From the UHGV virus genome UHGV-1358930: DNA of 64,000 nucleotides; one strand, written 5' to 3'. Below are positions 1,943-54,243 of the stretch, piece after piece. The notes beneath the pieces are model-generated. The model did not search any database, was not told the DNA's origin, and saw nothing but the letters and a program-made list of their open reading frames with translations. The DNA is from a virus. Every line of letters begins with the position of its first letter. Positions within the stretch are counted from its first letter, which is position 1. A program made the translations under genes and the position numbers.

Positions 1943-2446
1943 ACTGTCAATACTTAATTGACTGATGTCAGAGTAATCAGCTAACCTGACAAAGAATGAA
2001 AATGGTCGCCCTCCACCCGGAGGGCGTGGATGGAAATTACGAGATAAGTCCTCGTTATTTACCTTAGGATAGTGGCTAGTTGATAACGCGTAGCGTGACA
2101 ATCTAAGCGGTAAGCTGATGAACTAAATTATTTACAATCGTTAATTAAGTATGTAGCAGCTAGTAAGCTATTACATAGGAGCTCACAATCCTGCCGAAAT
2201 ATCATCTAGAATATTTCCGCGCAAATTGGCTGAAAAGAGTGAGTGGCAAGGAATATGCCAGGAATGATTCCAAAGTTGATAAGCAACTATAACCGGGTGC
2301 AAAACCAATCCCGGTATGATTAGAATCATACTTCTTAATAAGAATTCCGTATATCCTTGATTGAAGTATACGAAATTCGTTGATCCTAAAACGATAGGCG
2401 TTAACACATGTTTTATAGGTGACACCTCGGAAAGACGAGGATATAC

Positions 2447-2522
2447 GCTGGTGTAGCTCAGTTGGTAGAGCAGCTGATTTGTAATCAGCAGGTCAGGGGT
2501 TCGAGTCCGTTCACCAGCTCCA
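2447..2522 (+). tRNA. tRNA-Thr (anticodon TGT)
   Basis: Acceptor gctggtg/caccagc. D-arm gctc-agttggta-gagc. Anticodon stem gctga/tcagc with loop TTTGTAA. T-loop TTCGAGT. CCA encoded. Confidence 0.85.
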
Positions 2523-3265
2523 TATCGGCCGGTTTCGGGTCGTTAGATAAACACAGTGATGTGTATAAAGCATGGTCGATGATTTCTGAACCATGCGACT
2601 GAAGAAGTTCTTCAGTGCAACGGAAAACCAATATTCACTAATCCAAACCTACGGTTGAGGGCAACTGCTAATGCTATGGCTTGGAAGGAGTCATGAAAAA
2701 GGCTCTATATTAACTCGGAAACGAGTGGATGGGAAATTGCTTCGAGGTGCGAATCCTGTTAAGTTCAGTGCTTCGTTGATTTTGAAAGCTCCCTTAAATC
2801 GAAAGATAGGAGCGCTTTCAGTAAAGCCTGTCGATAACAAGACGGCAGAACGGCGACGATTGGGTCGTGCTCAAAAGGTACGAATGGTCAAACGTACACC
2901 TCGTCGTTCATTGGGATCAATACACACTTTAGCTTTCATTAGCACCAGTGGGGTAAACTGTTATATCAAGCAAAAGTGTGTGCGACTTTAGAGAGACAAA
3001 CGACTTATCGTTCTGAAAAATGAACGCGCGTAAAGCTCGCAAGGCAATACGTGAGACAGTACGAGTAGGTGCAACCGTAGGAGACCGCAATCTCCGCACT
3101 CCGCAAGAGGCGATGTGCTAAAAGGAAATCTATAGTGCTTCAGAGTAAGATTTTGCTGGCTTTTACAAAACCAGTGTCGTTGATGCCTACAGCTTAATCG
3201 GCTGTGTGGTCACTCGCTTCCAACGGCGAGAGATGGCATCGTGGCGGGTCAAGATCTCAGCCCGT

Positions 3266-3345
3266 CGTTCAATATAGTCCAATAGCTTATCACGGTAAAG
3301 CGCGTTTGTAAAACGACGAGTGGCTCGGTTCGAACCCGGCTTGGA
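3266..3345 (+). tRNA. degenerate tRNA-like element (anticodon loop TTGTAAA, GTA/Tyr-like); possible pseudogene
   Basis: 6-bp acceptor gtccaa/ttggac. Good D-stem gctt/aagc. T-loop TTCGAAC. Anticodon stem only about 3 bp. No CCA. Confidence 0.2.
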
Positions 3346-3629
3346 CATCCTATTAGACCCTTGCACGCCTCTCAACGATGCGTACCATGCGAGGGTCGAA
3401 ATTAAATAGTTTTCTTGCCGCATTTGGTACGAAGTATCAAAATATCCGCTGCCTGCGGTAATAGGTGATCTGAATATAGATCAAATTCAGATCAACGGCG
3501 TAGCATTTAACGGGCTTTAGCTACACTACACGGTAAGAGTTGAGAAAGCTGGTTGATGTATCGTGCAAACCTGCGGGTCCACGATCCACAGACGGTTCGC
3601 GATGACTGCTGTAAACGGAATCGCGTTTT

Positions 3630-3721
3630 GGGAATGTACTCAAGTGGTTGAAGAGACCAGTCCTGAAAACTGGGAGGTCGTTCATAGCGGCGCGAGCGTT
3701 CGAATCGCTCCATTCCCGCCA
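3630..3721 (+). tRNA. type II tRNA-Ser-like (anticodon TGA) with long variable arm; position 33 is C (atypical)
   Basis: Acceptor gggaatg/cattccc. D-arm ctc-aagtggttgaa-gag. Anticodon stem ccagt/actgg with loop CCTGAAA. About 20-nt variable arm. Perfect T-arm gagcg-TTCGAAT-cgctc. Discriminator G then CCA. Confidence 0.65.
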
Positions 3722-4276
3722 TCCCCGCTCGACGCAACGCGCCTGAGAATGAAACCGATGCAACTTTGGGAGCACGTCACACGGGCGGAAAAGCCGTGCG
3801 TTGCTAAACCTGCTCCAACGTAATGGAGGAAGTCGGAACGGCTAATCCGTCAAGAGCCGAAGAACTGGATCCTAAGCTCATATTCGATAACAACAGAAGC
3901 GTGTAGGTGGCAGCTCGGAAAGACGAGCAAATATAGGTCAGTACAGTGTAATTGGTATCACCCCGGACTGTAAATCCAGCTTGGCCTACTATAGAGATAG
4001 CGCTAAGACCAGCTATCACGGCGTTGAATCAGTGATCAGGTACAAGAAACGCTTAATCTCGAAGCGAAACAGAGTAGCTAAAAGAACTGTACGTTGCATA
4101 GTAGGCAACCAACCGAAATTGGCCGAACTGGCGTGTCGTGTAGCCATGCGACTTTAAATAACAACGGTGGCACCATTACATACAGATGCGCTGCGAGCAA
4201 AGTATGAGAAAGATTATCTTTCTTTTGTCGGTGGGCAGGTTTGAAGTTATCCTGTTGCAGATAAAACTTCAAACAC

Positions 4277-4350
4277 GCCGGTATAGTGTAGTGGTAACAC
4301 CCAATCCTTCCAAGATTGTATTGCGGATTCGAGTTCCGTTACCGGCTCCA
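4277..4350 (+). tRNA. tRNA-Gly (anticodon TCC), copy 1
   Basis: Acceptor gccggta/taccggc. D-stem gtgt/acac. Anticodon stem caatc/gattg with loop CTTCCAA. T-loop TTCGAGT. CCA encoded. Confidence 0.8.
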
Positions 4351-4460
4351 GCGCGAGAACGTCACTGACTAAGCGTAGCACAGTGCATGGATAGGAGGGA
4401 AGCTTCATGAGAAACGACGCGCACGCCTTCTAAGTCTTGAAAGGGGGGGGGACTTAGAAA

Positions 4461-4760
4461 ATGAGCAGAAGCTATAAGAAAACGCCGTGGTGCGGAGATA
4501 AGAAAGGCAAATGGAAAAAGCGCAGAGCTTCAAAGGTCGTGCGCGGATATCTCAGGCGCCATATCGAAGATCTGTTCCAAGATGCGCAATACAAGAAAAT
4601 CTACTGTTCACGGTACATATGCGACTACGGGTTCTTATATCCATGGGAAGAGCATTGGACGTATGTGCAGGAAGAGAATTCACATGTGCGTGCGAATGAG
4701 CCAAAACGTTCGAAAGAAGATGAGTACCGCCAGTGGTATCAAGAGTACAAAGCTAAATAA
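4461..4760 (+). CDS. hypothetical basic protein
   Basis: G-rich RBS before ATG at 4461. 99-aa Lys/Arg/Trp/Tyr-rich ORF. A hairpin gcgctct..agagcgc follows the stop codon. Confidence 0.35.
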   Translation: MSRSYKKTPWCGDKKGKWKKRRASKVVRGYLRRHIEDLFQDAQYKKIYCSRYICDYGFLYPWEEHWTYVQEENSHVRANEPKRSKEDEYRQWYQEYKAK

Positions 4761-4799
4761 CAATCGGTTATGCGCTCTCCGATAAAAGAGCGCACACGA

Positions 4800-4874
4800 T
4801 GGGCTATGGTGAAAAGGCAACACATCAGACTTTGACTCTGACATTTGTTGGTTCGAGTCCAACTAGCCCAGCCA
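4800..4874 (+). tRNA. tRNA-Gln (anticodon TTG), copy 2
   Basis: Acceptor tgggcta/tagccca. Anticodon stem tcaga/tctga with loop CTTTGAC. T-arm gttgg-TTCGAGT-ccaac. Discriminator G then CCA. Confidence 0.75.
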
Positions 4875-4949
4875 AGTAAAAAGAAGACGTTTTATCTCTC
4901 TTTATCTTTCTGTTTGTGGCATCAGTACAAACAAAATGCCACACAACAT

Positions 4950-5026
4950 GGGAATGTAGCTCAGTAGGTTAGAGCGCATGACTATAGGTCATGAGGTCGA
5001 AGGTTCAAGCCCTTCTGTTCCCTCCA
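4950..5026 (+). tRNA. tRNA of undetermined identity; anticodon loop CTATAGG gives a formal anticodon ATA (A34, highly unusual); Ile(TAT)-like, Tyr-decoding or a pseudo-tRNA are all possible
   Basis: Canonical cloverleaf: acceptor gggaatg/tgttccc, D-arm gctc-agtaggtta-gagc, anticodon stem catga/tcatg, T-arm gaagg-TTCAAGC-ccttc, CCA encoded. Confidence 0.6.
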
Positions 5027-5435
5027 AAGCCTATGTCAGTATAGGTCTTGAAATGATAAATAGACCAATACATTATCTTTCTAAAGATAATGTATCTGAT
5101 GAAAAGAGATCATCAACTCTCGGCGAAATATAACTGTTGTGACGAATGTGTCGCTTGACACAAAGAAGTAGCAGGTTCGTCGCTGCGCTTAATCTACTGA
5201 ACTGCAATGTTGATGTAAGCAGTGATAGAGGTTCCCAAACCCATTCAGGGAGATTAAGAAAAAGTTTGCTTATTTAGTAGAAAGAGGGTTGGAGGGGCAC
5301 AGCAAGTAGAATAAATGCAATAGGGCAACAAATTTGAAAGCTAATAAAGGATGTGCTAAGGAGCAGAAGTAACTACCTCTGTCTACTGTGTATTTCTACT
5401 AAATGAGTTTAACTTTTTATTAAGGAGCTTATAGT

Positions 5436-5648
5436 ATGAAAACATATACTTTTATTTGTTATGATAAGTATCCAAAAACAGTTAAAAAGTTCCACACTTT
5501 TAGAAAGCGATTTTCTTCGTTATCAGATATTGCTAAATTCTTAAAATCTTCAAATAAGCTCTATTTGCATGAGCCACTGAAACAGCTATCTAAAAACGAA
5601 TTAGCAATTCTGTCAAAGAAGCTCCGATCGTTAAATAACATCACATGA
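5436..5648 (+). CDS. hypothetical small protein
   Basis: AAGGAG RBS 7 nt upstream of ATG; 70-aa Lys-rich ORF. Confidence 0.4.
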   Translation: MKTYTFICYDKYPKTVKKFHTFRKRFSSLSDIAKFLKSSNKLYLHEPLKQLSKNELAILSKKLRSLNNIT

Positions 5649-5771
5649 AAAATCAAAATATTTATAAATAAGCTAGAAGGTTTTAATTAAATTTTATTTT
5701 TGACAATTATACTAAAATACTAAATTATCCGTATAATTGAACCTAATATAAATGTAGATAGGAGGTGATAC

Positions 5772-7028
5772 ATGATGAAAACATGGAAGCAAAATCTAAA
5801 ACATCTTACCGTCGATCAATACAATCTGTTAAGAGAATTATGTAGCTTGTCTAGAGCAGTATATAATGAAAGTTTGTATAATATTCGGCAGCATTATTTT
5901 GAAGAAGGTTCTTACTTGAGATATGAAGCAAACTACTATCTTGTAAAGAATTCTGATAATTACAAAAGATTAGGTGCAAATGTTGCTCAGCAATCTATGA
6001 AAGGAGCTGACGCATCCTTCAAATCCTTCTTCGGGTTACAGAAGCTCGCTAAATCCGGCAAGTATCAGGGCTGGAAAATACGAATGCCCAAATATTTGAA
6101 GAAAGATTCGTTTTTCAAAATAGTATTTAGTCAAGCGCAGATATCAGATGACAAATTTCGTGTTCCGGTTTCTTTTGATATGCGAAAAGATTACAAAGAA
6201 CCAATGTTCATAAAAATTCCTCCGCATATTATCGGCAAGAAAATAAGGCAGATTCATATTGTTCCTAAGTACAACGGTAGATACTTTGAAGTTAGATACA
6301 TGTTTGACGATATTGATGTAGAAAAGCCTGAAATCGATGCTACAAGAGCAATGGGAATAGACTTAGGTGTCAATAACTTAGCTACTTGTGTAACCGATAC
6401 AGGTGAGTCTTTCATAATTGATGGTAAGAAATTAAAATCAATAAATCAATGGTACAACAAAGAGTTGGCCAGACTGTCAAGTATTAAAGATAAGCAAAGT
6501 ATCAAAGGTTACACAAAACGCCAATACAACCTGACAACTAAGAGAAACAACAGAGTTAACAACTATATTTATTGTGCAGCTAAGAAAATAGTTAACTACT
6601 GTGTCAATAACAAAATTGGTAATATTGTTGTAGGGTATAATGATGGTTTTCAATCGAGATCCAACTTAGGAAAAGTAAATAACCAAAACTTCGTTATGAT
6701 TCCGTTAGGACGACTGAAGAGCAGACTTGAGTATCTTTGCAATCAACATGGAATCAATTTTGTACTTCAAGAAGAAAGTTACACTTCAAAAGCATCGTTC
6801 TTTGACGATGATAAAATGCCAAAATGGAATCCGCAGAATCCAGAAGAAGCAAAATTTTCGGGAAAACGCGTATACAGAGGATTATACATCACATCAAACA
6901 AAACCAAAATAAACGCAGATGTCAACGCAGCACTAAACATACTAAGAAAAAGTAACTTGACAGACCTAACCGTCTTACAAGCTAGAGGCGCAGTCAGCTC
7001 GCCTTCAAGATGCTATATAGCATCTTGA
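5772..7028 (+). CDS. tnpB: TnpB (IS200/IS605-family OrfB, RuvC-like RNA-guided nuclease family); no tnpA partner
   Basis: GGAGGTG RBS. 418 aa. C-terminal RuvC-III-like motif INADVNAALNILRKS. Overall TnpB architecture. Confidence 0.85.
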   Translation: MMKTWKQNLKHLTVDQYNLLRELCSLSRAVYNESLYNIRQHYFEEGSYLRYEANYYLVKNSDNYKRLGANVAQQSMKGADASFKSFFGLQKLAKSGKYQGWKIRMPKYLKKDSFFKIVFSQAQISDDKFRVPVSFDMRKDYKEPMFIKIPPHIIGKKIRQIHIVPKYNGRYFEVRYMFDDIDVEKPEIDATRAMGIDLGVNNLATCVTDTGESFIIDGKKLKSINQWYNKELARLSSIKDKQSIKGYTKRQYNLTTKRNNRVNNYIYCAAKKIVNYCVNNKIGNIVVGYNDGFQSRSNLGKVNNQNFVMIPLGRLKSRLEYLCNQHGINFVLQEESYTSKASFFDDDKMPKWNPQNPEEAKFSGKRVYRGLYITSNKTKINADVNAALNILRKSNLTDLTVLQARGAVSSPSRCYIAS

Positions 7029-7071
7029 TAAAGATTTTTTTAATGAATTTAATTGATTTATTTAAAATCTG

Positions 7072-7142
7072 CTGATGTAGCGCAGCTGTTAGAGCAACCG
7101 ACTTTAAGCAATGAGTCGTAGGTTGAAGTCTAGCAACCAGCT
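7072..7142 (+). other. tRNA-like remnant directly 3' of tnpB (D-arm-like tagcgcagctgttagagc, 5/7 acceptor pairing, aberrant 8-10 nt anticodon loop TTAAGCAATG)
   Basis: Partial cloverleaf only. Could be a disrupted tRNA, a tRNA-derived insertion target, or part of the TnpB-associated right-end RNA. Confidence 0.2.
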
Positions 7143-7153
7143 AGATTTGATAT

Positions 7154-7227
7154 GCGGATATAGTGTAACGGTAACATCCGACTCTTCCAAAGTCGTGTTG
7201 CGGGTTCGAGTCCCGTTATCCGCTCCA
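7154..7227 (+). tRNA. tRNA-Gly (anticodon TCC), copy 2
   Basis: Acceptor gcggata/tatccgc. Anticodon stem cgact/agtcg with loop CTTCCAA. T-arm gcggg-TTCGAGT-cccgt. CCA encoded. Confidence 0.8.
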
Positions 7228-7421
7228 AGAGGGAGTATGCACCCCGCTACCCATCTAGTATGTCGACTATCTGATGGCGCGAAATTTAACTGAAAAGAGC
7301 ATATATGCAAGCTTGTCGCATATGAGTACAAGTGTCGTAAAGTCAATACGATGTCTAACTATTTTGACAAAGGCAGAGAAGCTGCTATAATCGGGTGCAA
7401 AAACCATTCCCGATACAATAA

Positions 7422-7498
7422 GGGTCTTTAGCTCAGTTGGTCAGAGCATCCGGCTCATAACCGGACGGTCCAGGGTTCAAACCCCTGAAGACCCACCA
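7422..7498 (+). tRNA. tRNA-Met elongator-type (anticodon CAT; Ile2-lysidine identity cannot be excluded)
   Basis: Acceptor gggtctt/aagaccc with 1:72 paired. Anticodon stem tccgg/ccgga with loop CTCATAA. T-arm caggg-TTCAAAC-ccctg. Discriminator A then CCA. Confidence 0.9.
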
Positions 7499-7713
7499 CA
7501 ATTGGTACAACACGACTGTAACGACTCTCGCGGTTTAAAGTTGTATCCCACTTCTTGATTGAGGTGTGAAGTGTCAAGAGAGCTTCCGACGAGTCTTATG
7601 GGCACCACCTAGCGGTGAAAAGATAAGACAATCGTCATTAGATCTAAGTTGTCCGGCAGTGTTAATGTTATTGAATCATGGTGAAATTGTGATCACATCT
7701 GCCGGATACATAT

Positions 7714-7782
7714 CCTCCCGTAGTGTAGTGGTAGCACTAGCGTCCGTCAGGGCGAAGGATCCGTTCGAATCGGAAGGGAGGT
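7714..7782 (+). tRNA. tRNA-like, probably defective (GTC/Asp-like anticodon region but no proper 7-nt loop/5-bp stem; 4-bp T-stem; no CCA)
   Basis: Acceptor cctccc/gggagg. D-arm gtgt-agtggta-gcac identical in style to the Gly tRNAs. T-loop TTCGAAT. Confidence 0.3.
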
Positions 7783-7997
7783 TGTCTGGCACGGACAAAG
7801 TGCAGAACCTATCAAGAGGAATTCAGTGCCTGCCTCGCTTCGGATAGCAAAAGAAGGCGTTTGGTAGTAATCGACAAACTACTCGCGGTTACAGAGAGGG
7901 AGAGGCGTTACAGGTAAACCTCTTAGGTGCTATGATATCAGGCACTTAGCAAAGCACAGCTTGCAGTTAGGACTAATCCGACCAGATATCAAAATAT

Positions 7998-11663: not shown

Positions 11664-12153
11664 AGAAATATGGAAAGACATCCCGAATTATACACCGTAT
11701 CAAGCTTCTTCATTAGGTAACATCCGAATGAAACTGACTGACGGTTCATTTAAGCTACTCAAGCCGTTCTTAAACATGGATGGTTACTATCAAGTAGCTG
11801 TCAAGAACTGTCCTACAAAACTACCTAACCTTCACAGGCTTGTAGCTTTTGCGTTTCATGGTGTACCAGAAACTAGGATGGTAGTAGATCATTTGAATAA
11901 CATACATACTGATAATAGACCTGAAAATCTAGAATGGGTTACGCAGAAAGAAAATATGCGAAGGGCGAAGGTGATGGGACTGTATGCTAAGAAAACAAAA
12001 ATCAAATGCGTAGAAGACAACATCATCTATGAATCTATCGCAGACTGCGCGAAGAAAACAGGTATTCGACCTGCAAGTTTGTGGAGTACTACAAGAGACG
12101 GTACAGCAATTCATGGTAAACATTATATAAGAATTGAGCAAGAAAATATCTAA
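11656..12153 (+). CDS. HNH homing endonuclease, tandem paralogue of the preceding gene
   Basis: EIWKDIPNYTPYQASSLGNIR; VDHLNNIHTDNRPENLEWVTQKEN. Confidence 0.8.
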   Translation: MAEEIWKDIPNYTPYQASSLGNIRMKLTDGSFKLLKPFLNMDGYYQVAVKNCPTKLPNLHRLVAFAFHGVPETRMVVDHLNNIHTDNRPENLEWVTQKENMRRAKVMGLYAKKTKIKCVEDNIIYESIADCAKKTGIRPASLWSTTRDGTAIHGKHYIRIEQENI

Positions 12154-24236: not shown

Positions 24237-24324
24237 TTGTTTCTGCTCTGCAATACTTTCGTCACCTTTTATCTAATATATAGCAGGTGCTATTACATTA
24301 AACAATTTGTTGGAGGATGATTAT

Positions 24325-34350: not shown

Positions 34351-34406
34351 AGAGAGTTTTGTATTCCTTTGAAACCCTCTCTGAAAATAAAAATAATAAG
34401 GAGAAG
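34351..34406 (+). ncRNA. candidate preQ1-I-type riboswitch-like leader (hairpin + A-rich tail + SD) upstream of queF
   Basis: agagag..ctctct 6-bp stem, then gaaaataaaaataataaggag with the SD in the tail; architecture only, no model scan possible. Confidence 0.3.
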
Positions 34407-34413
34407 TAAAAAA

Positions 34414-35925
34414 ATGCTAAAATCAAACAATGGAAGAACATCCGAAGACTTATCAGGAGTAACTCTACTTGGTAATAACAACACTGAGTACAACTACGAC
34501 TATACTCCAGAAGTTCTAGAAACATTTGTAAACAAGCATCCTGACAACGATTATGTTGTCACATTTGATGCTTATGAATTTACAAGCAAGTGTGTCACCG
34601 GAGACACTATGATAGATGTTGCATGTAATGAAACTGACAATCCGGATGGAATTCCAATCAAAGATTTGGTAGGTACAGAAGGATATGTGTTTTGTGTAGA
34701 TCCCACTACATTACAACCATTATGTAGGAAGTATCGAGATGTACGAAAGACTGGAGAAAGTGTACCTGTAGTTAAAGTACTCATGCAAAGTTTGAGAACA
34801 GATGGAAAGGGTAACACATACTATGAATCTTCTGAAATCAAGTGTACACCTGATCATATGATATTGGTGAAAAAAGGATTCCATGATAGCGAATGGGTGT
34901 GTGCAAAAGATCTCAAACCTGGCATGAGGTTGATTGCAAATCAAAGAAGTGGAGATGTAATACGATCTAAACTTCGACACAGACTTATTGGGGAAGCAAT
35001 TTTTGATGAAGATATTATGAATATTCATCATATAGACGGTAATCATTACAATAATGACCCATCTAATCTATCTAATTTATCTTCTCATGATCATCACCAT
35101 CTTCATAGATCTCAAGAATATGGATACGATAATTTAGATGTATCATACTTAGTTGATCTGTATAACTCCGGAGAAAACTTCAACTCCATAGCAAAGATGT
35201 TCAACTGTGATGTATCTACCATTGAATCTAGAATAGGTAATATAGTTGGAAGACGGACACAATCAGAGTCATTATCACTACGAAATAACTTGTTGAATAA
35301 AGAGCGGGATAGCGAAATCTGTGAATTGTACAACAAAGGATACTTGCTATCTGAAATTGCAGATTACTTAAATATCCACAGTACAACAGTGTTAGGAGCA
35401 CTAGAAAGACACGGCATCCCTCGCAGAGAATCGAACTTCTCTAGGTACAATCGAAAGAAATTGAACCTCCCACCATTGAATCATAAAGTACTAGCTGTAC
35501 TAGATGGTGGATATGAAGATGTGTACAACATGGAAGTAGAAGGAGTTGAAAACTATTTTGCCAATGAAGTGATAGTCCATAACTGCCCAAAAACGGGGCA
35601 GCCAGATTTTGCAAAAGTTGTAATTAGTTACATTCCTAATGAGAGAATGGTTGAAAGCAAGTCCCTAAAGCTTTACCTCTTTTCTTTCCGCAATCATGGA
35701 GATTTCCACGAAGACTGCATGAACATCATCATGAAGGATCTAATTCATCTTATGGATCCGAAGTACATTGAAGTAAAAGGTATTTTTTCTCCAAGAGGAG
35801 GTATCTCCATCTTTCCCTTTGTTAACTACGCGAATCCGAAATTTAATTATCAGGATTTTGCAAAGTCTCGAATGCTGGAGGCGCTTAGAGATTCGAGCAA
35901 TAGAACAGTAAGATACGATATGTGA
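34414..35925 (+). CDS. queF: NADPH-dependent 7-cyano-7-deazaguanine reductase QueF (YkvM type), interrupted by an intein (extein 172 aa)
   Basis: N-extein ends ..AYEFTSK, C-extein starts [18 protein letters not shown]..; spliced junction [14 protein letters not shown] matches the QueF catalytic motif E(F/Y)TSLCPxTGQPD. Confidence 0.8.
34591..35583 (+). mobile_element. intein (331 aa) within queF carrying an HNH endonuclease domain and two HTH modules; inserted immediately before the QueF catalytic Cys, which serves as +1 residue
   Basis: Block [11 protein letters not shown] at the start; terminal VIVHN followed by extein Cys; HNH core [23 protein letters not shown]. Confidence 0.75.
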
Positions 35926-49302: not shown

Positions 49303-49879
49303 TTGTATATATACACCATATTGTACATACAAACAATGCGACTTAGCTTGTCCTAATAGAGCTGAAGTGAATTGTTGGTTCAAACGATGCCGACTTGATA
49401 TGTCAAATAATTGCTTGCATACTAATATCCGAAATATTGAGAAAGCCGAGGATCTACTAAGTAACAAGTATGGAGAAACTGTGTGGTTTCCCACAGATAA
49501 TCCTTCAGATGCAAGCGACACTATTTGCTACGTAGCTATTTGCAAATATGGTAAAGGTACTGCTCTTGGAAACGGAATATACAATCTGGATTTTGCAAAA
49601 TTTATAGATATGATCAAGGAGTCCTGGAATACGCATTTTGAAACAGATAACTTAATTCAGATGCGTGTGTGGTCTTTGTCTGCAAATTACCTAGTTATCT
49701 CAAATCTAGATTATGTTAGATTTCAAGATTTTGAAAGTCAAACGTTGCTAAGGCTTCTGAATGATCGAAGAGATTATACAAAGACAACTGTAGTAGTTAC
49801 TAGTAAAGAACCTTTGGTCGGCAGCGGAAATTTCTTTCCTAGATTGACTTCTTTGCTAAAGGGGGTCAAGAGCAATTGA
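49295..49879 (+). CDS. hypothetical protein, Cys-rich N-terminus (possible helicase-associated factor)
   Basis: 194 aa immediately upstream of the helicase gene; function not inferable from sequence alone. Confidence 0.45.
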   Translation: MHDCIYTPYCTYKQCDLACPNRAEVNCWFKRCRLDMSNNCLHTNIRNIEKAEDLLSNKYGETVWFPTDNPSDASDTICYVAICKYGKGTALGNGIYNLDFAKFIDMIKESWNTHFETDNLIQMRVWSLSANYLVISNLDYVRFQDFESQTLLRLLNDRRDYTKTTVVVTSKEPLVGSGNFFPRLTSLLKGVKSN

Positions 49880-52299
49880 CGAATTCAGTAGAACTTCAAG
49901 TTATTTGTAAAATTTTAACAAGTCAAGATGATTCTGAAATTGATAGGCTGTGTGCGTTTGATGAATCCTATTACGCAGTATTCAAAGATCAGATCAAATT
50001 TATTCTAGATCATAGAGAAAAATATCATACTGTCCCAGACTTGTTTACGTTCCAAGCTCAATTCGAAGACATTGTTTTGATTGATGTAAACGAATCTGCA
50101 GATTTTTTAGTAGACGGACTTCGGAAAAACAAGCAGCAGATCATACTCTTACAAACATTCAATAAGCTATCTGAGTTAGGTTCTGCAGACGTTTCTGAAG
50201 CTTGGCAGTTCTTACAATCCCAATGCGACAAAGCTGCTCAACTTGATAATTCTAACCCGATGGATATCATCAAAGAAGCTCACAAGCGAAGTGATCAAGT
50301 TTTATCGCTAAGTAATCAAACAAGAATTCCTACAGGATTCAAAGAAGTAGATGAAACAATGTATGGAGGATTGTCAACTGTTGAAGAACTTTGTCTTGTA
50401 GTTGCTAGAACTAACACAGGTAAAGCTCAGCCTCTTTGGAGTAATATCTTAACACCTACTGGGTGGAAGCGTATGCGAGATATTCAAGTAGGAGACATTG
50501 TATGCGGTAGAGATAATGACAATGGTAAAGTAGTTCAAATATTTCCGCAAGGTACAATTGACTACTATCGTGTAAAGTTTGATGATGGTACTTATACGGA
50601 GTGTTCTGCAGATCATCTTTGGGAAGTTCTGGATAGTGAACGAAGGAAGCATGATAGAAAAACTTATGGTCAGTATCTTACATTGACTACTCGAGATATT
50701 CGGAATCATATGTATCGCAGATACTCTGTTGATATGTGTGAACAAATTGAATTCGAGAGTGCTTTTGATACAGATAGTGAACTTGACGGATATTTTTTAG
50801 GAGCATTTATCGGGCATGGTAGAAATGTAGGTAACAAGCTATATATTCATTCTCTGTCCGATGTTTCAAAGCGACGTATAATTGATGCATTGTCTAAATA
50901 TCGTTGTCAATTCACAGAAAATGATCCAAATACACTCGTGATTGAGGATAAGAATGATGGTAAGCTTATCCAAAAGATGTTCGAGTACAACTTGATGAAC
51001 TGCAAAGTCATTGATAGACATATTCCGGATATATATTTTCATAGCCCTGTAAATGTTAGAAAAGCTCTGTTATCAGGTCTCTGCGATACAGATAGCACAA
51101 TGTTATCAAAAAATCATAGAGGTTGGGTTTTCGTTACATCTTCAGATCAGCTTAAATCTGATTTTGTTTACATTGCTAGATCTTTAGGTGTAAAAGCAAA
51201 GGTGTCGACTGCAAGATCTGGTAGATGGGTTGACTTAGGTGTATCGCACGTTGCGAATACGTACCACAGGGTTATGTGTATCTCAAAATTCAATCCGTTT
51301 TATGGTTCACCAAATTACACAGAATTTGAACGCAGACAGGATAAAACTAAATTTAAAAATCGCAAGCGTGTTTGCAAATTCATTGATTCTATTGAATACG
51401 TAGGTAAGACGGAATGCCAGTGTATCATGGTAGACAATAAGACGCATACATATATTACAGATGATTTTATTGTCACACATAACACCTGGGTTACTACTAA
51501 GATGATGGAGTCTGCACAAGCGAATGGATTTCCTGTACTATATTATAGCCCAGAGATGCAATCTGCTTTCATTGGCACACGATTTGATACCTGGAGAGGT
51601 CACTTCCGAAATAGCGATATTCAACGAGGTAAATACAGCGAAGACTACATTCAGTACATCAAAGACATTGTTAAAGAGGAAACTGGTGCATTTGTTGCAG
51701 AAGACAAAGATATGCCAGGAGGAAAAACAACTGTCAGGTCGATTGAAACTCTAGTCAAGCGACATCATATAAAGCTTGTTATCATTGATGGTCTGTCTTA
51801 TATGGCAGATACAGAAAAGTCTGATAGCGATGTTATTAAGTATAAAAATATATGTACTGGACTATTCCGAATGTCTAAAACATATGGATGTGCTGTAGTA
51901 GTATCTGTACAAGCTAATAGAGACACTAAATCTAATGTCGATGACAAAGGAGTCCCGTGGCCTGATATGTATTCGATTGAAGGCTCAGACCATCCAGGAC
52001 GTATTGCAACTCAAGTATTTGCGCTTCGACAATTGTACGAAGAGCATACATTAGAGATAAAGCTGTTGAAGACTAGAAATGCAAAGAATGCAAATCCTAC
52101 GTTCGCATATGTATGGGATCCAAATACAGGAAACACAGAGTTTGTTTCGGATGATGCATCGGCTGCTCCTCCTTCTGCTCCTGCACAGCCTAGCAAGTTC
52201 TCAACGCCGACAGTGTCAGCAAAGATTGTACACACCGATATAGATGATAATCTAATCGATGCCAGTACAGATGACGATCTAGATGACGTTGAGTTTTGA
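49876..52299 (+). CDS. DnaB-like replicative helicase (T4 gp41-like), interrupted by an intein in the P-loop
   Basis: Exteins join as ..LVVARTNTGK|TWVTTKMMESAQANG (Walker A GxxxxGKT). C-terminal RecA-like motifs: Walker B LVIIDGLSYM, SVQANRD. Confidence 0.8.
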   Translation: MTNSVELQVICKILTSQDDSEIDRLCAFDESYYAVFKDQIKFILDHREKYHTVPDLFTFQAQFEDIVLIDVNESADFLVDGLRKNKQQIILLQTFNKLSELGSADVSEAWQFLQSQCDKAAQLDNSNPMDIIKEAHKRSDQVLSLSNQTRIPTGFKEVDETMYGGLSTVEELCLVVARTNTGKAQPLWSNILTPTGWKRMRDIQVGDIVCGRDNDNGKVVQIFPQGTIDYYRVKFDDGTYTECSADHLWEVLDSERRKHDRKTYGQYLTLTTRDIRNHMYRRYSVDMCEQIEFESAFDTDSELDGYFLGAFIGHGRNVGNKLYIHSLSDVSKRRIIDALSKYRCQFTENDPNTLVIEDKNDGKLIQKMFEYNLMNCKVIDRHIPDIYFHSPVNVRKALLSGLCDTDSTMLSKNHRGWVFVTSSDQLKSDFVYIARSLGVKAKVSTARSGRWVDLGVSHVANTYHRVMCISKFNPFYGSPNYTEFERRQDKTKFKNRKRVCKFIDSIEYVGKTECQCIMVDNKTHTYITDDFIVTHNTWVTTKMMESAQANGFPVLYYSPEMQSAFIGTRFDTWRGHFRNSDIQRGKYSEDYIQYIKDIVKEETGAFVAEDKDMPGGKTTVRSIETLVKRHHIKLVIIDGLSYMADTEKSDSDVIKYKNICTGLFRMSKTYGCAVVVSVQANRDTKSNVDDKGVPWPDMYSIEGSDHPGRIATQVFALRQLYEEHTLEIKLLKTRNAKNANPTFAYVWDPNTGNTEFVSDDASAAPPSAPAQPSKFSTPTVSAKIVHTDIDDNLIDASTDDDLDDVEF
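50425..51483 (+). mobile_element. intein (353 aa) with LAGLIDADG homing endonuclease; class-3-like (Ala1, WCT motif)
   Basis: Starts AQPLWSNILTPTGW; ends FIVTHN|T. Block B ..ADHLW, block F ECQCIMV, block G Thr-His-Asn. LAGLIDADG motifs LDGYFLGAFIGHG and LLSGLCDTDS. Confidence 0.65.
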
Positions 52300-52514: not shown

Positions 52515-53651
52515 TTAGGAGAAAGCTATTCTCAAGCCCTCGTTCAATATATTCTTTGATGCATTGATATCTCTATCATGTGTTGTTTGACAATTAGGAC
52601 AAGTCCAATTTCTAACTTCAAGATTTTTGACTTCTGGATTTTTGAATCCGCAACAGCTACAAGTTTGAGAAGACGGAAAGAAGGCGTCTATTTTGACAAG
52701 TTGTTTTCCATACCAGCTGCACTTGTAAGTCAATAGTTCAACGAATTTTGACCAGCTTGCGTCTGAAATTGCTCTTGCTAGTTTATGATTCTTGACCATA
52801 TTTTTGACTTTCAAGTCTTCAACACAGATTATGTCGTGGTTTTTGACAAATTCTGTTGACAGCTTGTGCAAGAAATCATTTCGTTGATTTGAAACTTTCT
52901 CAAATTGTTTAGCAAGTCTGATTCTTGATTTGTTTCTGTTATTAGATCCTTTTTGCTTCTTCGAGAGCTGTCTTTGAAGTCTTCTTAACTTCTTAGTAGA
53001 CTTTGAAAGGTATTTCGGATTTTTGATCTTTTCACCGTCTGAAGTTATTGCGAAATCTTTGATGCCGAGGTCAATTCCTACAACAGATCCAGTTTTGTCA
53101 AACTCTTCAATTTCAACATCTTTGCAACAGATACTTGCAAAATATTTTCCTGAAGCTGTTTTTGAGATGGTTGCCGAAAGCGGAGTTCCTTTGACATTTA
53201 AATTTCCTTTGAATTTAACCCATTTCAATTTAGGCAAGAAGATCTTGTTATCTAAACAATGAAATTGTGCAGGTGTGGAGTATGTAGCCTTATATGACTG
53301 TCTACTTGAAAGTTTCTTCTTAAATTTAGGATAACCTGGTTGCTTTCCATTCTTTACGTTTCTAAAGAAGTTTTGATACGCAGTATCAAGATCTCTAAGA
53401 GACGATTGCAAAGCCATTGCTTCAGGTTCTTTCAACCATGAATATTCGTCAAGCTTCTTGAGCTTTGTTAAATCTGCAGAATTTTGATTATATGTATTTG
53501 ACTTTCTTGCCTCTTCATAATCTTTGATGGATTTAGCAAGATAGTAGTTGTAGACAAATCTGCAGCAGCCAAAGGTTTTTGCAATTTGCTCAATCTGCTG
53601 CTTGTTCGGATATATCCGTATTTTATAAGCTTTCAGAATCATTTTGGTCAT
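52515..53651 (-). CDS. tnpB: TnpB (IS607/IS605-family OrfB, RuvC-like nuclease with C-terminal zinc finger)
   Basis: N-terminus [23 protein letters not shown]; zinc finger [24 protein letters not shown]. Confidence 0.85.
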
Positions 53652-54243
53652 CTGAAAGTGCCTCCTTGATTTTAGCTACGCTTCTCTTAGAATACATTTT
53701 CATTGAGTAACAGTGCAGTAAACTTACGATTTCTTCAAAAATTTCTTCAGAATCAAGTTTTTCGGATCCTAGTTGGGACGCAACAACTATCTCTGTTCCA
53801 AATTTTCTAAAAAGATGATAAAATAGATCAAATCCTACTCTAGACAGTCTGTCTTTATAATTGATAACTACTTTCTCAACTTTATATTCCAATACATCGT
53901 CTAATAGTTCAAAAAACTGTTTTCTGTTTTCAAAAGAAATTCCGGAAGCAACCTCTTGAAAAACACCATCGACTTGAATTCCGGAATTCATGCAAAAACT
54001 GTTCAAAGATTCAAGTTGGTTCGCTAGATCCGATTTTTGAGATATTGTAGAAACTCTAGCGTAGATATAATTTTTTCTTGTTTGACCGTTATTTAATATA
54101 GAGTAGACGTCTTTATCATGATAGATGCGCTTACCTGTAGGTGTTAAGTCATAATGAATGAGTCCTCTTTTGCAATAATGACCAAGTGTTGGCTGTGAAA
54201 TATTCAATAGTTGTAACACTTGTTTAGCTTTCATATTGATCAC
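53623..54243 (-). CDS. tnpA: IS607-type transposase TnpA (small serine recombinase with N-terminal MerR-like HTH)
   Basis: [26 protein letters not shown]; catalytic serine motif [14 protein letters not shown]; 29-nt overlap with tnpB. Confidence 0.85.

Follow-up and report, generated by a model that had tools for sequence, protein, structure and literature searches.

Introduction

Insertion sequences (ISs) that encode the nuclease TnpB are associated with an RNA that continues past the right end of the element, and the flanking DNA becomes the guide (Meers et al. 2023, preprint PMC10055086; review PMC13565253). Here we describe a complete tnpB-only insertion sequence of 1,435 bp, at positions 5642-7076 on the + strand of a 64,000-nucleotide stretch of the virus genome UHGV-1358930. 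We refer to that whole stretch as the window, and all coordinates are positions in it. The element lies in a phage tRNA island, directly upstream of a tRNA-like sequence that an initial annotation, made from the sequence alone, had proposed to be either a tRNA gene disrupted or duplicated by the insertion or a part of the right-end omega-RNA (ωRNA) of the element. We consider it likely that the element is a non-autonomous, IS1341-like IS with a guide derived from its flank, that it inserted beside a tRNA-Lys gene that was already dead, and that it is maintained through homing or retention.

The closest described systems are the TnpB-ωRNA pairs of ISDra2/IS605-type elements (Karvelis et al. 2021; Meers et al. 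2023, PMC10055086). Common to these and to the present locus are a RuvC D-E-D triad, an RNA predicted to span the 3' end of tnpB and the right end, a guide taken from the right flank, a 5-nt transposon-adjacent motif (TAM) identical to the left flank, a transposon-free allele or donor joint as the expected target, and seamless insertion. In contrast to the ISDra2/IS605-type systems, the element described here contains no tnpA, its TAM is WAYAT rather than TTGAT, and its TnpB belongs to a clade without the four-Cys zinc finger and is too dissimilar for a single-sequence match in the Protein Data Bank (PDB). The host replicon also differs, being a lytic-type phage genome, so that a phage genome that co-infects or replicates takes the place of the 'homologous chromosome'. 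With the IS1341 group of IS200/IS605 (review PMC13565253), the element shares TnpB as its only protein, hairpin-containing ends and motif-adjacent insertion. Unlike members of the IS607 family, it has no serine-recombinase TnpA next to tnpB within 5642-7076; the TnpA at 53623-54243 belongs to another element.

Two phage phenomena are also relevant. SegB of phage T4 and other free-standing homing endonucleases of phage tRNA regions (Brok-Volchanskaya 2008, cited in PMC13565253) offer a parallel in the presence of a selfish nuclease gene in a phage tRNA cluster, and in the expected cutting of the nuclease-free allele during co-infection with copying-in by repair. SegB is a GIY-YIG enzyme of unrelated fold that relies on protein recognition, whereas recognition at the present locus would be by an RNA guide and a TAM. 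The second phenomenon is the tRNA pseudogene of phage tRNA clusters, a decayed tRNA copy among working tRNAs that is recognizable by its D-arm and T-loop. The pseudogene described below differs from others in that its orthology to an intact tRNA-Lys(UUU) can be demonstrated, in that it overlaps, at its 5' end, a protein gene's stop codon, and in that it would double as the guide template of a TnpB element.

Results

Boundaries and insertion sites of the element

The ends of the element were established by comparing eight independent insertions with IS-free alleles. The set of insertions consists of the one in the window and seven others in related phages, which lie in different gene neighbourhoods. 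For six of these seven (L021, L027, L028, L022/L023, L024 and L001) the whole gene was available, with TnpB identities of 88-97%; the seventh (L030) could be compared over its left end and the initial 330 nt of the gene, with 94% DNA identity over 468 nt. The IS-free contigs L029-L032 carry the small gene found upstream of the element without TnpB, and they read ...CGTTAAATAACAT/GTAGCGCAGCTGTTAGAGC... across the insertion site (the slash marks the junction). Likewise, BLAST aligned window positions 4341-5641 contiguously with 7075-7464 in L029, L030, L031 and L043. The insertion is seamless and without a target-site duplication. The only ambiguity at the boundaries is a 2-nt AT, by which they can slide because the left flank and the IS both end in AT.

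Directly 5' of the left end lies the TAM, AACAT (5637-5641, + strand), and the empty-site alleles read ...TAAATAACAT/GTAGCGC... at this position. A 5' flank of the form WAYAT was observed at all eight insertions (AACAT, AATAT, TATAT, TACAT, TATAT, TACAT, AATAT and TACAT). At the other end, six copies can be aligned past the stop codon as far as ...AAAAT(C/T)TGCTGAT and then diverge completely, which places the right end at position 7076. The insertions have a conserved left end (5642-5771, + strand), which includes a conserved hairpin, AATTATAC...GTATAATT, at approximately 5706-5738 (+), the arms of which co-vary in L001 and L002. A promoter scan also returned a promoter-like site there, TTGACA-17-AATTAT (5700-5728, +), identified by consensus match only. 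We considered an alternative left boundary at GAAAA (5647) and rejected it: it gives no consistent TAM, and the empty alleles put CACAT inside the insertion. An exact search of IMG/VR with the left-end motif returned a single contig, which was already in the comparison set.

The window also contains sites at which its relatives are occupied. The empty site for the L030 copy is at 11907 (TACAT/...), and that for the L027 copy is at 24298, where TTACAT is followed by a perfect match to the L027 guide. Near-identical elements at eight different sites, with empty sites in sister phages, are a record of recent mobility.

The TnpB protein

The tnpB gene (5772-7028, + strand) encodes a protein of 418 amino acids that contains the motif KINADVNAALNILRKS and ends ...KINADVNAALNILRKSNL.... 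It is the sole gene in 5642-7076, and no tnpA is present inside the element. The nearest tRNAs called by ARAGORN are at 4950-5026 upstream and, downstream, an intact tRNA-Gly(tcc) at 7154-7227 (+ strand; 63.5 bits with the Rfam tRNA model), which starts 11 nt after 7142 and lies outside the element. The initial annotation had recognized a stand-alone TnpB with this motif, placed between tRNA genes and followed shortly by an intact tRNA-Gly, and in these respects it was accurate.

TnpB matches two Pfam families above their cut-offs, OrfB_IS605 (PF01385, 84.3 bits against a cut-off of 30.5) and the Cas12f1-like TNB domain (PF07282, 34.1 bits against 26.3). The RuvC triad, consisting of D197 (GIDLG), E335 (QEESYTS) and D383 (NADVN), is invariant in a 19-sequence alignment that reaches down to 38% identity. 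A single-sequence phmmer search of the PDB gave no match, and a family profile was needed; that profile matches AsCas12f and other Cas12f/TnpB chains in the PDB, with the triad aligned to the Cas12f motifs. An AlphaFold2 model, built on a shallower alignment (A9), has a mean predicted local distance difference test (pLDDT) score of 67.8, with values of 70-95 in the N-terminal two thirds and poor values after residue ~290. The best Foldseek matches of the model are AsCas12f (E 4e-17, template modelling score 0.58), ISFba1 TnpB (8iaz) and ISDra2 TnpB (8h1j/8exa), with E values that range from 1e-17 to 1e-12. The four-Cys zinc finger (CxxC...CxxC) of the TNB domain is absent in this clade, and there are no cysteines between E335 and D383; the distant relatives L017 and L018 keep two of them. 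More remote relatives, at 38% identity or less, were found by TBLASTN in Nodularia, Lak, crAss-like and Staphylococcus phages and were of no use for defining ends.

Judged from its sequence, TnpB looks catalytically intact. One may ask instead if the protein has been domesticated or inactivated, as a TldR-like RNA-guided repressor or a decaying relic, so that the element no longer moves or cuts. The missing transposase, the missing zinc-finger cysteines and the poorly predicted C-terminal part of the model would agree with such a fate. We regard it as unlikely, since the D-E-D triad is invariant, homologues with 69-97% identity have a full-length open reading frame in dozens of metagenomic clusters, and the near-identical elements occupy eight sites matched by empty sites in sister phages. 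Moreover, each insertion site has a different guide, which would be expected of a mobile element but not of a fixed regulator.

The ωRNA scaffold and its predicted guide

A putative ωRNA scaffold, also termed right-end RNA (reRNA), occupies approximately 6948-7076 (+ strand), where it overlaps the 3' end of tnpB and runs to the tip of the right end. The fold has four helices and a closing stem in the last ~130 nt of the element, and folding prediction places its terminal hairpin at approximately 7032-7070 (+). RNAalifold, applied to eight sequences, returned 43 pairs, 13 of which show compensatory changes. A covariance model (R1) built on those sequences recovers the same scaffold immediately 3' of tnpB in 22 related loci, in which TnpB identity falls as low as 38%. 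Across 23 sequences, compensatory changes on both sides were observed for 37 of 44 pairs, and 89% of the cells are paired, compared with 38-47% when the partners are slid by 1-3 columns; none of 500 shuffles reached the observed values. No Rfam family exists for this ωRNA, and weak matches in 7040-7160 (SraB, snoRNAs and a miRNA) are noise.

A separate right-end/ωRNA fragment, with no tnpB adjoining, was found at 2317-2384 (+ strand). It derives from a related, L002-type TnpB element (...CTTCTTAATAAGAATTCCGTATATCCTTGATTGAAGTATACGAAATTCGTTGAT), scores 31.9 bits (E 1e-5) with the ωRNA model and is absent from L029-L031 and L043.

From its position 3' of the right-end tip, the guide of the ωRNA would be GTAGCGCAGCTGTTAG (7077-7092, + strand), possibly extending to ~7096, for a length of 16-20 nt. 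The proposal that the tRNA-like remnant is part of the right-end ωRNA must therefore be divided: the scaffold ends at 7076 and the remnant is flanking DNA, and its first 16-20 nt would be the guide by position. The guide is identical, for 17-19 nt, to the sequence that follows AACAT in the IS-free contigs L029-L032, L043, L148, L150 and L153. No other match with fewer than three mismatches was found inside the window, and a search of 185,579 bacterial and archaeal genomes returned none with a flanking TAM.

The same interval, 7077-7092, is also the D-arm portion of the tRNA-Lys pseudogene described below, and targeting of host tRNA genes was considered and rejected: of the three occurrences of the 18-mer in the 185,579 genomes, none lies in a tRNA and none follows WAYAT. 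By inspection of the alignment with the intact tRNA-Lys of relatives (alignment A8), those genes differ at 4 of 16 guide positions and have no TAM.

The tRNA-Lys pseudogene

Positions 7077-7142 (+ strand) correspond to tRNA positions 7 to 73 of a tRNA-Lys(UUU) in alignment A8 with intact orthologues. Local alignment of this segment to the tRNAs of the window gave a score of 30, compared with 16.2 ± 2.2 for controls, and that score was reached by none of 2000 genomic windows and by one of 2000 shuffles. The remnant described in the initial annotation is thus tRNA-derived, in agreement with that description, although neither Infernal nor ARAGORN at its default setting recognizes a tRNA. With Infernal, no match to the tRNA family RF00005 was obtained at E≤1 (12 kb searched) or E≤10 (121 nt searched). 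ARAGORN made no default call on the remnant and called 7071-7142 only at an 80% threshold, at which the window yields 50 calls as opposed to nine by default. In the drawing that accompanies this call, the acceptor strand is GCTGATG, of which GCTGAT is the invariant tip of the IS. The partial acceptor pairing reported earlier is accounted for in the same way: 7072-7076 (CTGAT) is the IS right-end tip, and its match to the 3' strand of the pseudogene is coincidental.

Between the upstream tRNA and the TnpB element lies a small conserved phage gene (5436-5648, + strand) of 70 amino acids (69 in IS-free phages), for which 77 homologues were found and aligned. Its last codons span the insertion site; the C-terminus is NNM* in IS-free phages and NNIT* here, with the stop codon supplied by the IS. 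A scan of IMG/VR with the conserved end of this gene recovered relatives with an intact tRNA-Lys. An intact tRNA-Lys(ttt) was found at the equivalent position, overlapping the small-gene stop codon, in L039, L041, L042, L044, L045 and L047-L050, and ARAGORN calls it in L039, L042, L048 and L049. In these relatives the small gene ends ...AATAAAATGAAGGTGTAG. Alignment A8 has 32 columns that are invariant across its eight rows, including blocks in the D-arm, the anticodon loop and the T-loop. An exact search of IMG/VR with the remnant of the window itself returned no match.

Relative to the intact orthologues, the pseudogene has a 6-nt deletion in the 5' acceptor strand (ATGAAGGTGTAGC to ATGTAGC), an anticodon loop that has lost 1 nt (CTTTTAA to CTTTAA) with an unpaired anticodon stem, a mutated T arm, and a 3' strand (AACCAGC) that is non-complementary. 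Every one of these lesions is present in the IS-free alleles L029-L032, L043, L148, L150 and L153, in which the pseudogene is joined to the upstream gene as ...AACAT/GTAGCGCAGC.... An intermediate, L038, has decayed arms and still carries the 5' acceptor strand. Because the IS-free alleles show the full set of lesions, decay of the tRNA preceded insertion of the IS, and the IS therefore did not disrupt the tRNA-Lys gene. As read from these alleles, the order of events is death of the tRNA, then the 5' deletion, which created both AACAT and the target, and then insertion of the IS.

Could the remnant nevertheless be functional, as a non-canonical tRNA or tRNA-like RNA whose expanded anticodon loop makes it a frameshift or stop suppressor, or as an RNase P/Z signal that trims the precursor of the ωRNA or of tRNA-Gly? 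Many phages retain its sequence, further odd tRNA-like calls (3276-3350 and 7712-7784) and an ATA-anticodon tRNA are present in this phage, and a 125-nt region folds better than shuffles (z = -3.5), with most of the energy contributed by the terminal hairpin of the IS. Taken by itself, the remnant has a fold no more stable than expected by chance (z = -1.65), and it has no covariance-model tRNA match even at E≤10. A 5' acceptor strand is missing from every allele, and the best helices of the window are broken by allele substitutions that are not compensated: the CGACU/AGUCG helix in L029, L030 and L043 (CGCCU, CACCU), and GGUUG/CAACC, which is lost in L038. We see no sign that an RNA structure has been retained. 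In addition, the other IS copies do not adjoin tRNAs, and therefore no tRNA signal is needed for ωRNA maturation. A functional role for the remnant is very unlikely on this evidence. The remnant scores as noise with Infernal, which speaks against a functional tRNA, and the alignment and the shared lesions identify it as a true tRNA-Lys pseudogene all the same.

Finally, that the IS insertion itself destroyed, truncated or duplicated a working tRNA gene, as the initial annotation had suggested and as might be supposed from tRNA homology that begins exactly at the first base after the IS (tRNA position 7) with the 5' acceptor strand missing, is highly improbable: at least eight IS-free contigs share the 6-nt acceptor-strand loss and the anticodon, T-arm and 3'-strand lesions, in-silico removal of the IS at 12 cut points restored no tRNA detectable by ARAGORN at any of them, and in L038 decay has reached the arms with the 5' strand still in place, which puts death of the tRNA first.

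A co-resident IS607-type element

An IS607-type element, which the initial annotation does not mention, is present on the - strand at approximately 52374/6-54302/4, with its ends mapped by means of the empty allele L131. The gene for an intein-bearing DnaB-like helicase lies on one side of it and a primase-like gene on the other, and its left flank is TTCATAT(AT). It encodes a serine-recombinase TnpA with Resolvase and MerR domains (53623-54243, -), 46 kb from the first TnpB, and a second, canonical TnpB (52515-53651, -) that has an HTH domain and a zinc finger (CSCCG...CPNC) and is 28% identical to the first. A copy of this second TnpB, 97% identical and without TnpA, occurs elsewhere in L051.

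The tnpB-only element has hairpins at both ends. The AT/AT junction ambiguity is found at all eight tnpB-only insertions and at the co-resident IS607-type element. The right-end tips of the two elements are also alike (AAATCTGGTGTGAT for the IS607-type and AAATCTGCTGAT for the tnpB-only element), with an alignment score of 27 as compared with 16.7 ± 2.5 in shuffles; their left ends show no significant similarity. A motif screen for HUH+Y produced no candidate among the 107 window reading frames of at least 90 amino acids.

The phage and its tRNA island

The window is phage DNA that encodes an NAD-dependent DNA ligase, tail-fibre-like proteins, a DNA polymerase and the intein-bearing DnaB-like helicase. 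Comparison of its first 12 kb with L025, a 108-kb human-gut metagenome scaffold, gave 100% identity over that stretch, and the relatives of the phage are contigs of ~160 kb. The host replicon of the element is a large gut phage of roughly 160 kb. BLASTN of 5400-7500 against 50,697 phage records returned tRNA-length matches only, with no close sequenced relative among them.

The first 9 kb of the window form the tRNA island, with nine tRNAs at the ARAGORN default. Several tRNAs of the island are aberrant or decaying. The tRNA at 4950-5026 is assigned the unusual anticodon ATA; for its orthologue the assignment is att in L029, 'atta' in L031/L032, and aca in the case of L043. The anticodon loop is 6 nt long in a tRNA-Gly-like sequence (7712-7784), which falls just under the ARAGORN default here but is called at default in the phages L029 and L031. 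At 2848-3263 (+ strand), a GOLLD-like large RNA (Rfam RF02032) was detected with 92 bits (E 2e-23), which is under the gathering score of 150. It is followed by an odd, near-threshold tRNA-like call at 3276-3350 and then, at 3359-3395, by an abiF RNA motif with 38.3 bits against a gathering score of 37. The sister phages L029-L031 and L043 lack a counterpart of the entire 1.9-kb segment (2455-4340) in which the GOLLD-like RNA lies.

The island also contains repeated modules. A perfect sigma-70 consensus promoter (TTGACA-16-TATAAT, 7364-7391), followed by the hairpin CGGGTGCAAAAACCATTCCCG, lies just 5' of tRNA-Met (7364-7410), and a paralogous copy of the hairpin module CGGGTGCAAAAACCATTCCCG lies upstream of tRNA-Thr (2278-2312). 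Two more copies of the motif CGATCGTTAA(A/T)TAAGTATGTAGCAG are present at 1523-1561 and 2121-2159. They resemble the junction between the small-gene end and the tRNA start, CGATCGTTAAATAACATGTAGCGCAG, which suggests that the island contains paralogous gene-plus-tRNA modules. Many other selfish elements are present, among them an HNH-interrupted GTP cyclohydrolase-like open reading frame (34369-35925) and a Hom_end intein in the helicase (49876-52299). Tandem NUMOD4/HNH_3 genes lie a few kb downstream of the tRNA island (L025 13719-14718).

Discussion

We propose that the tnpB-only element operates as other TnpB elements do, with ωRNA transcription and processing, cleavage activity and homing extrapolated from the TnpB paradigm (Karvelis 2021; Meers 2023). 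The 3' part of the tnpB transcript would fold into the ωRNA scaffold (~6948-7076) and read on into the flanking DNA, and the first 16-20 nt of the pseudogene (GTAGCGCAGCTGTTAG...) would become the guide. TnpB together with this RNA would then cut DNA that bears WAYAT followed by a guide-matching sequence. The guide matches the IS-free alleles next to AACAT, and TnpB would therefore be directed to element-free sister genomes or to the donor joint; the predicted target is the IS-free allele of the sister phages and also the donor joint that forms after excision. If the break were then repaired from a genome that carries the IS, in the course of co-infection or replication, the element would be copied or restored, which amounts to homing or retention. 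Cleavage may also damage competitor phages. The occurrence of occupied and empty alleles in both directions between the window and its sister phages fits the pattern predicted by RNA-guided homing or retention. The pseudo-tRNA shows no function of its own and would be a relic whose first bases serve, by chance, as the guide.

Several observations weigh against this interpretation. The left boundary was placed by analogy in 6 of the 8 insertions, with an allowed offset of 5-7 nt from the conserved GAAAA. Not every junction is perfectly seamless, since the left flank of L027 differs by 17 nt from the empty site in the window: the 17 nt at the 24298 junction in the window that are missing from L027 are AGCAGGTGCTATTACAT. 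The alignment behind the covariation counts for the ωRNA was fitted to the model, a procedure that favours the structure, and the ends of the ωRNA and the length of the guide follow from position. Nuclease competence is uncertain, given that the four-Cys zinc finger is missing from this clade and that confidence is low in the C-terminal third of the model. Lastly, the element has no transposase, and no Y1 (HUH) TnpA was detected in the window. We nevertheless judge a tnpB-only, IS1341-like element with a flank-derived guide to be the probable reading of the locus.

With respect to the source of the transposase, the shared AT at both junctions and the similar right-end tip hint at a possible serine-recombinase partner rather than a Y1 partner; the left flanks of the two elements, of the (T/C)ATAT type, are also similar. 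As a speculative extension, the tnpB-only element might be a non-autonomous partner of the IS607-type element, with insertion carried out in trans by the serine recombinase, spread between phages by RNA-guided homing when they co-infect, and a zinc-finger-less TnpB clade that serves gut phages as a programmable homing or exclusion nuclease. We put this forward tentatively and think it more doubtful than the IS1341-like reading itself.

The locus is an ordinary, if clean, instance of a selfish-DNA system that is already known, and it leaves knowledge of the TnpB mechanism unchanged. It does correct the record with respect to the tRNA-like remnant, in that the tRNA-Lys pseudogene, by the lesions it shares with IS-free alleles, died before the IS arrived and is neither a casualty of the insertion nor a novel tRNA. 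The compact TnpB (418 amino acids), with its A/T-rich TAM and no zinc finger, may interest those who mine for genome editors. As a fully resolved natural phage-borne TnpB element, with exact ends, a WAYAT TAM, a covarying scaffold, occupied and empty alleles and a perfect guide, the locus offers raw material for testing RNA-guided homing between co-infecting phages.

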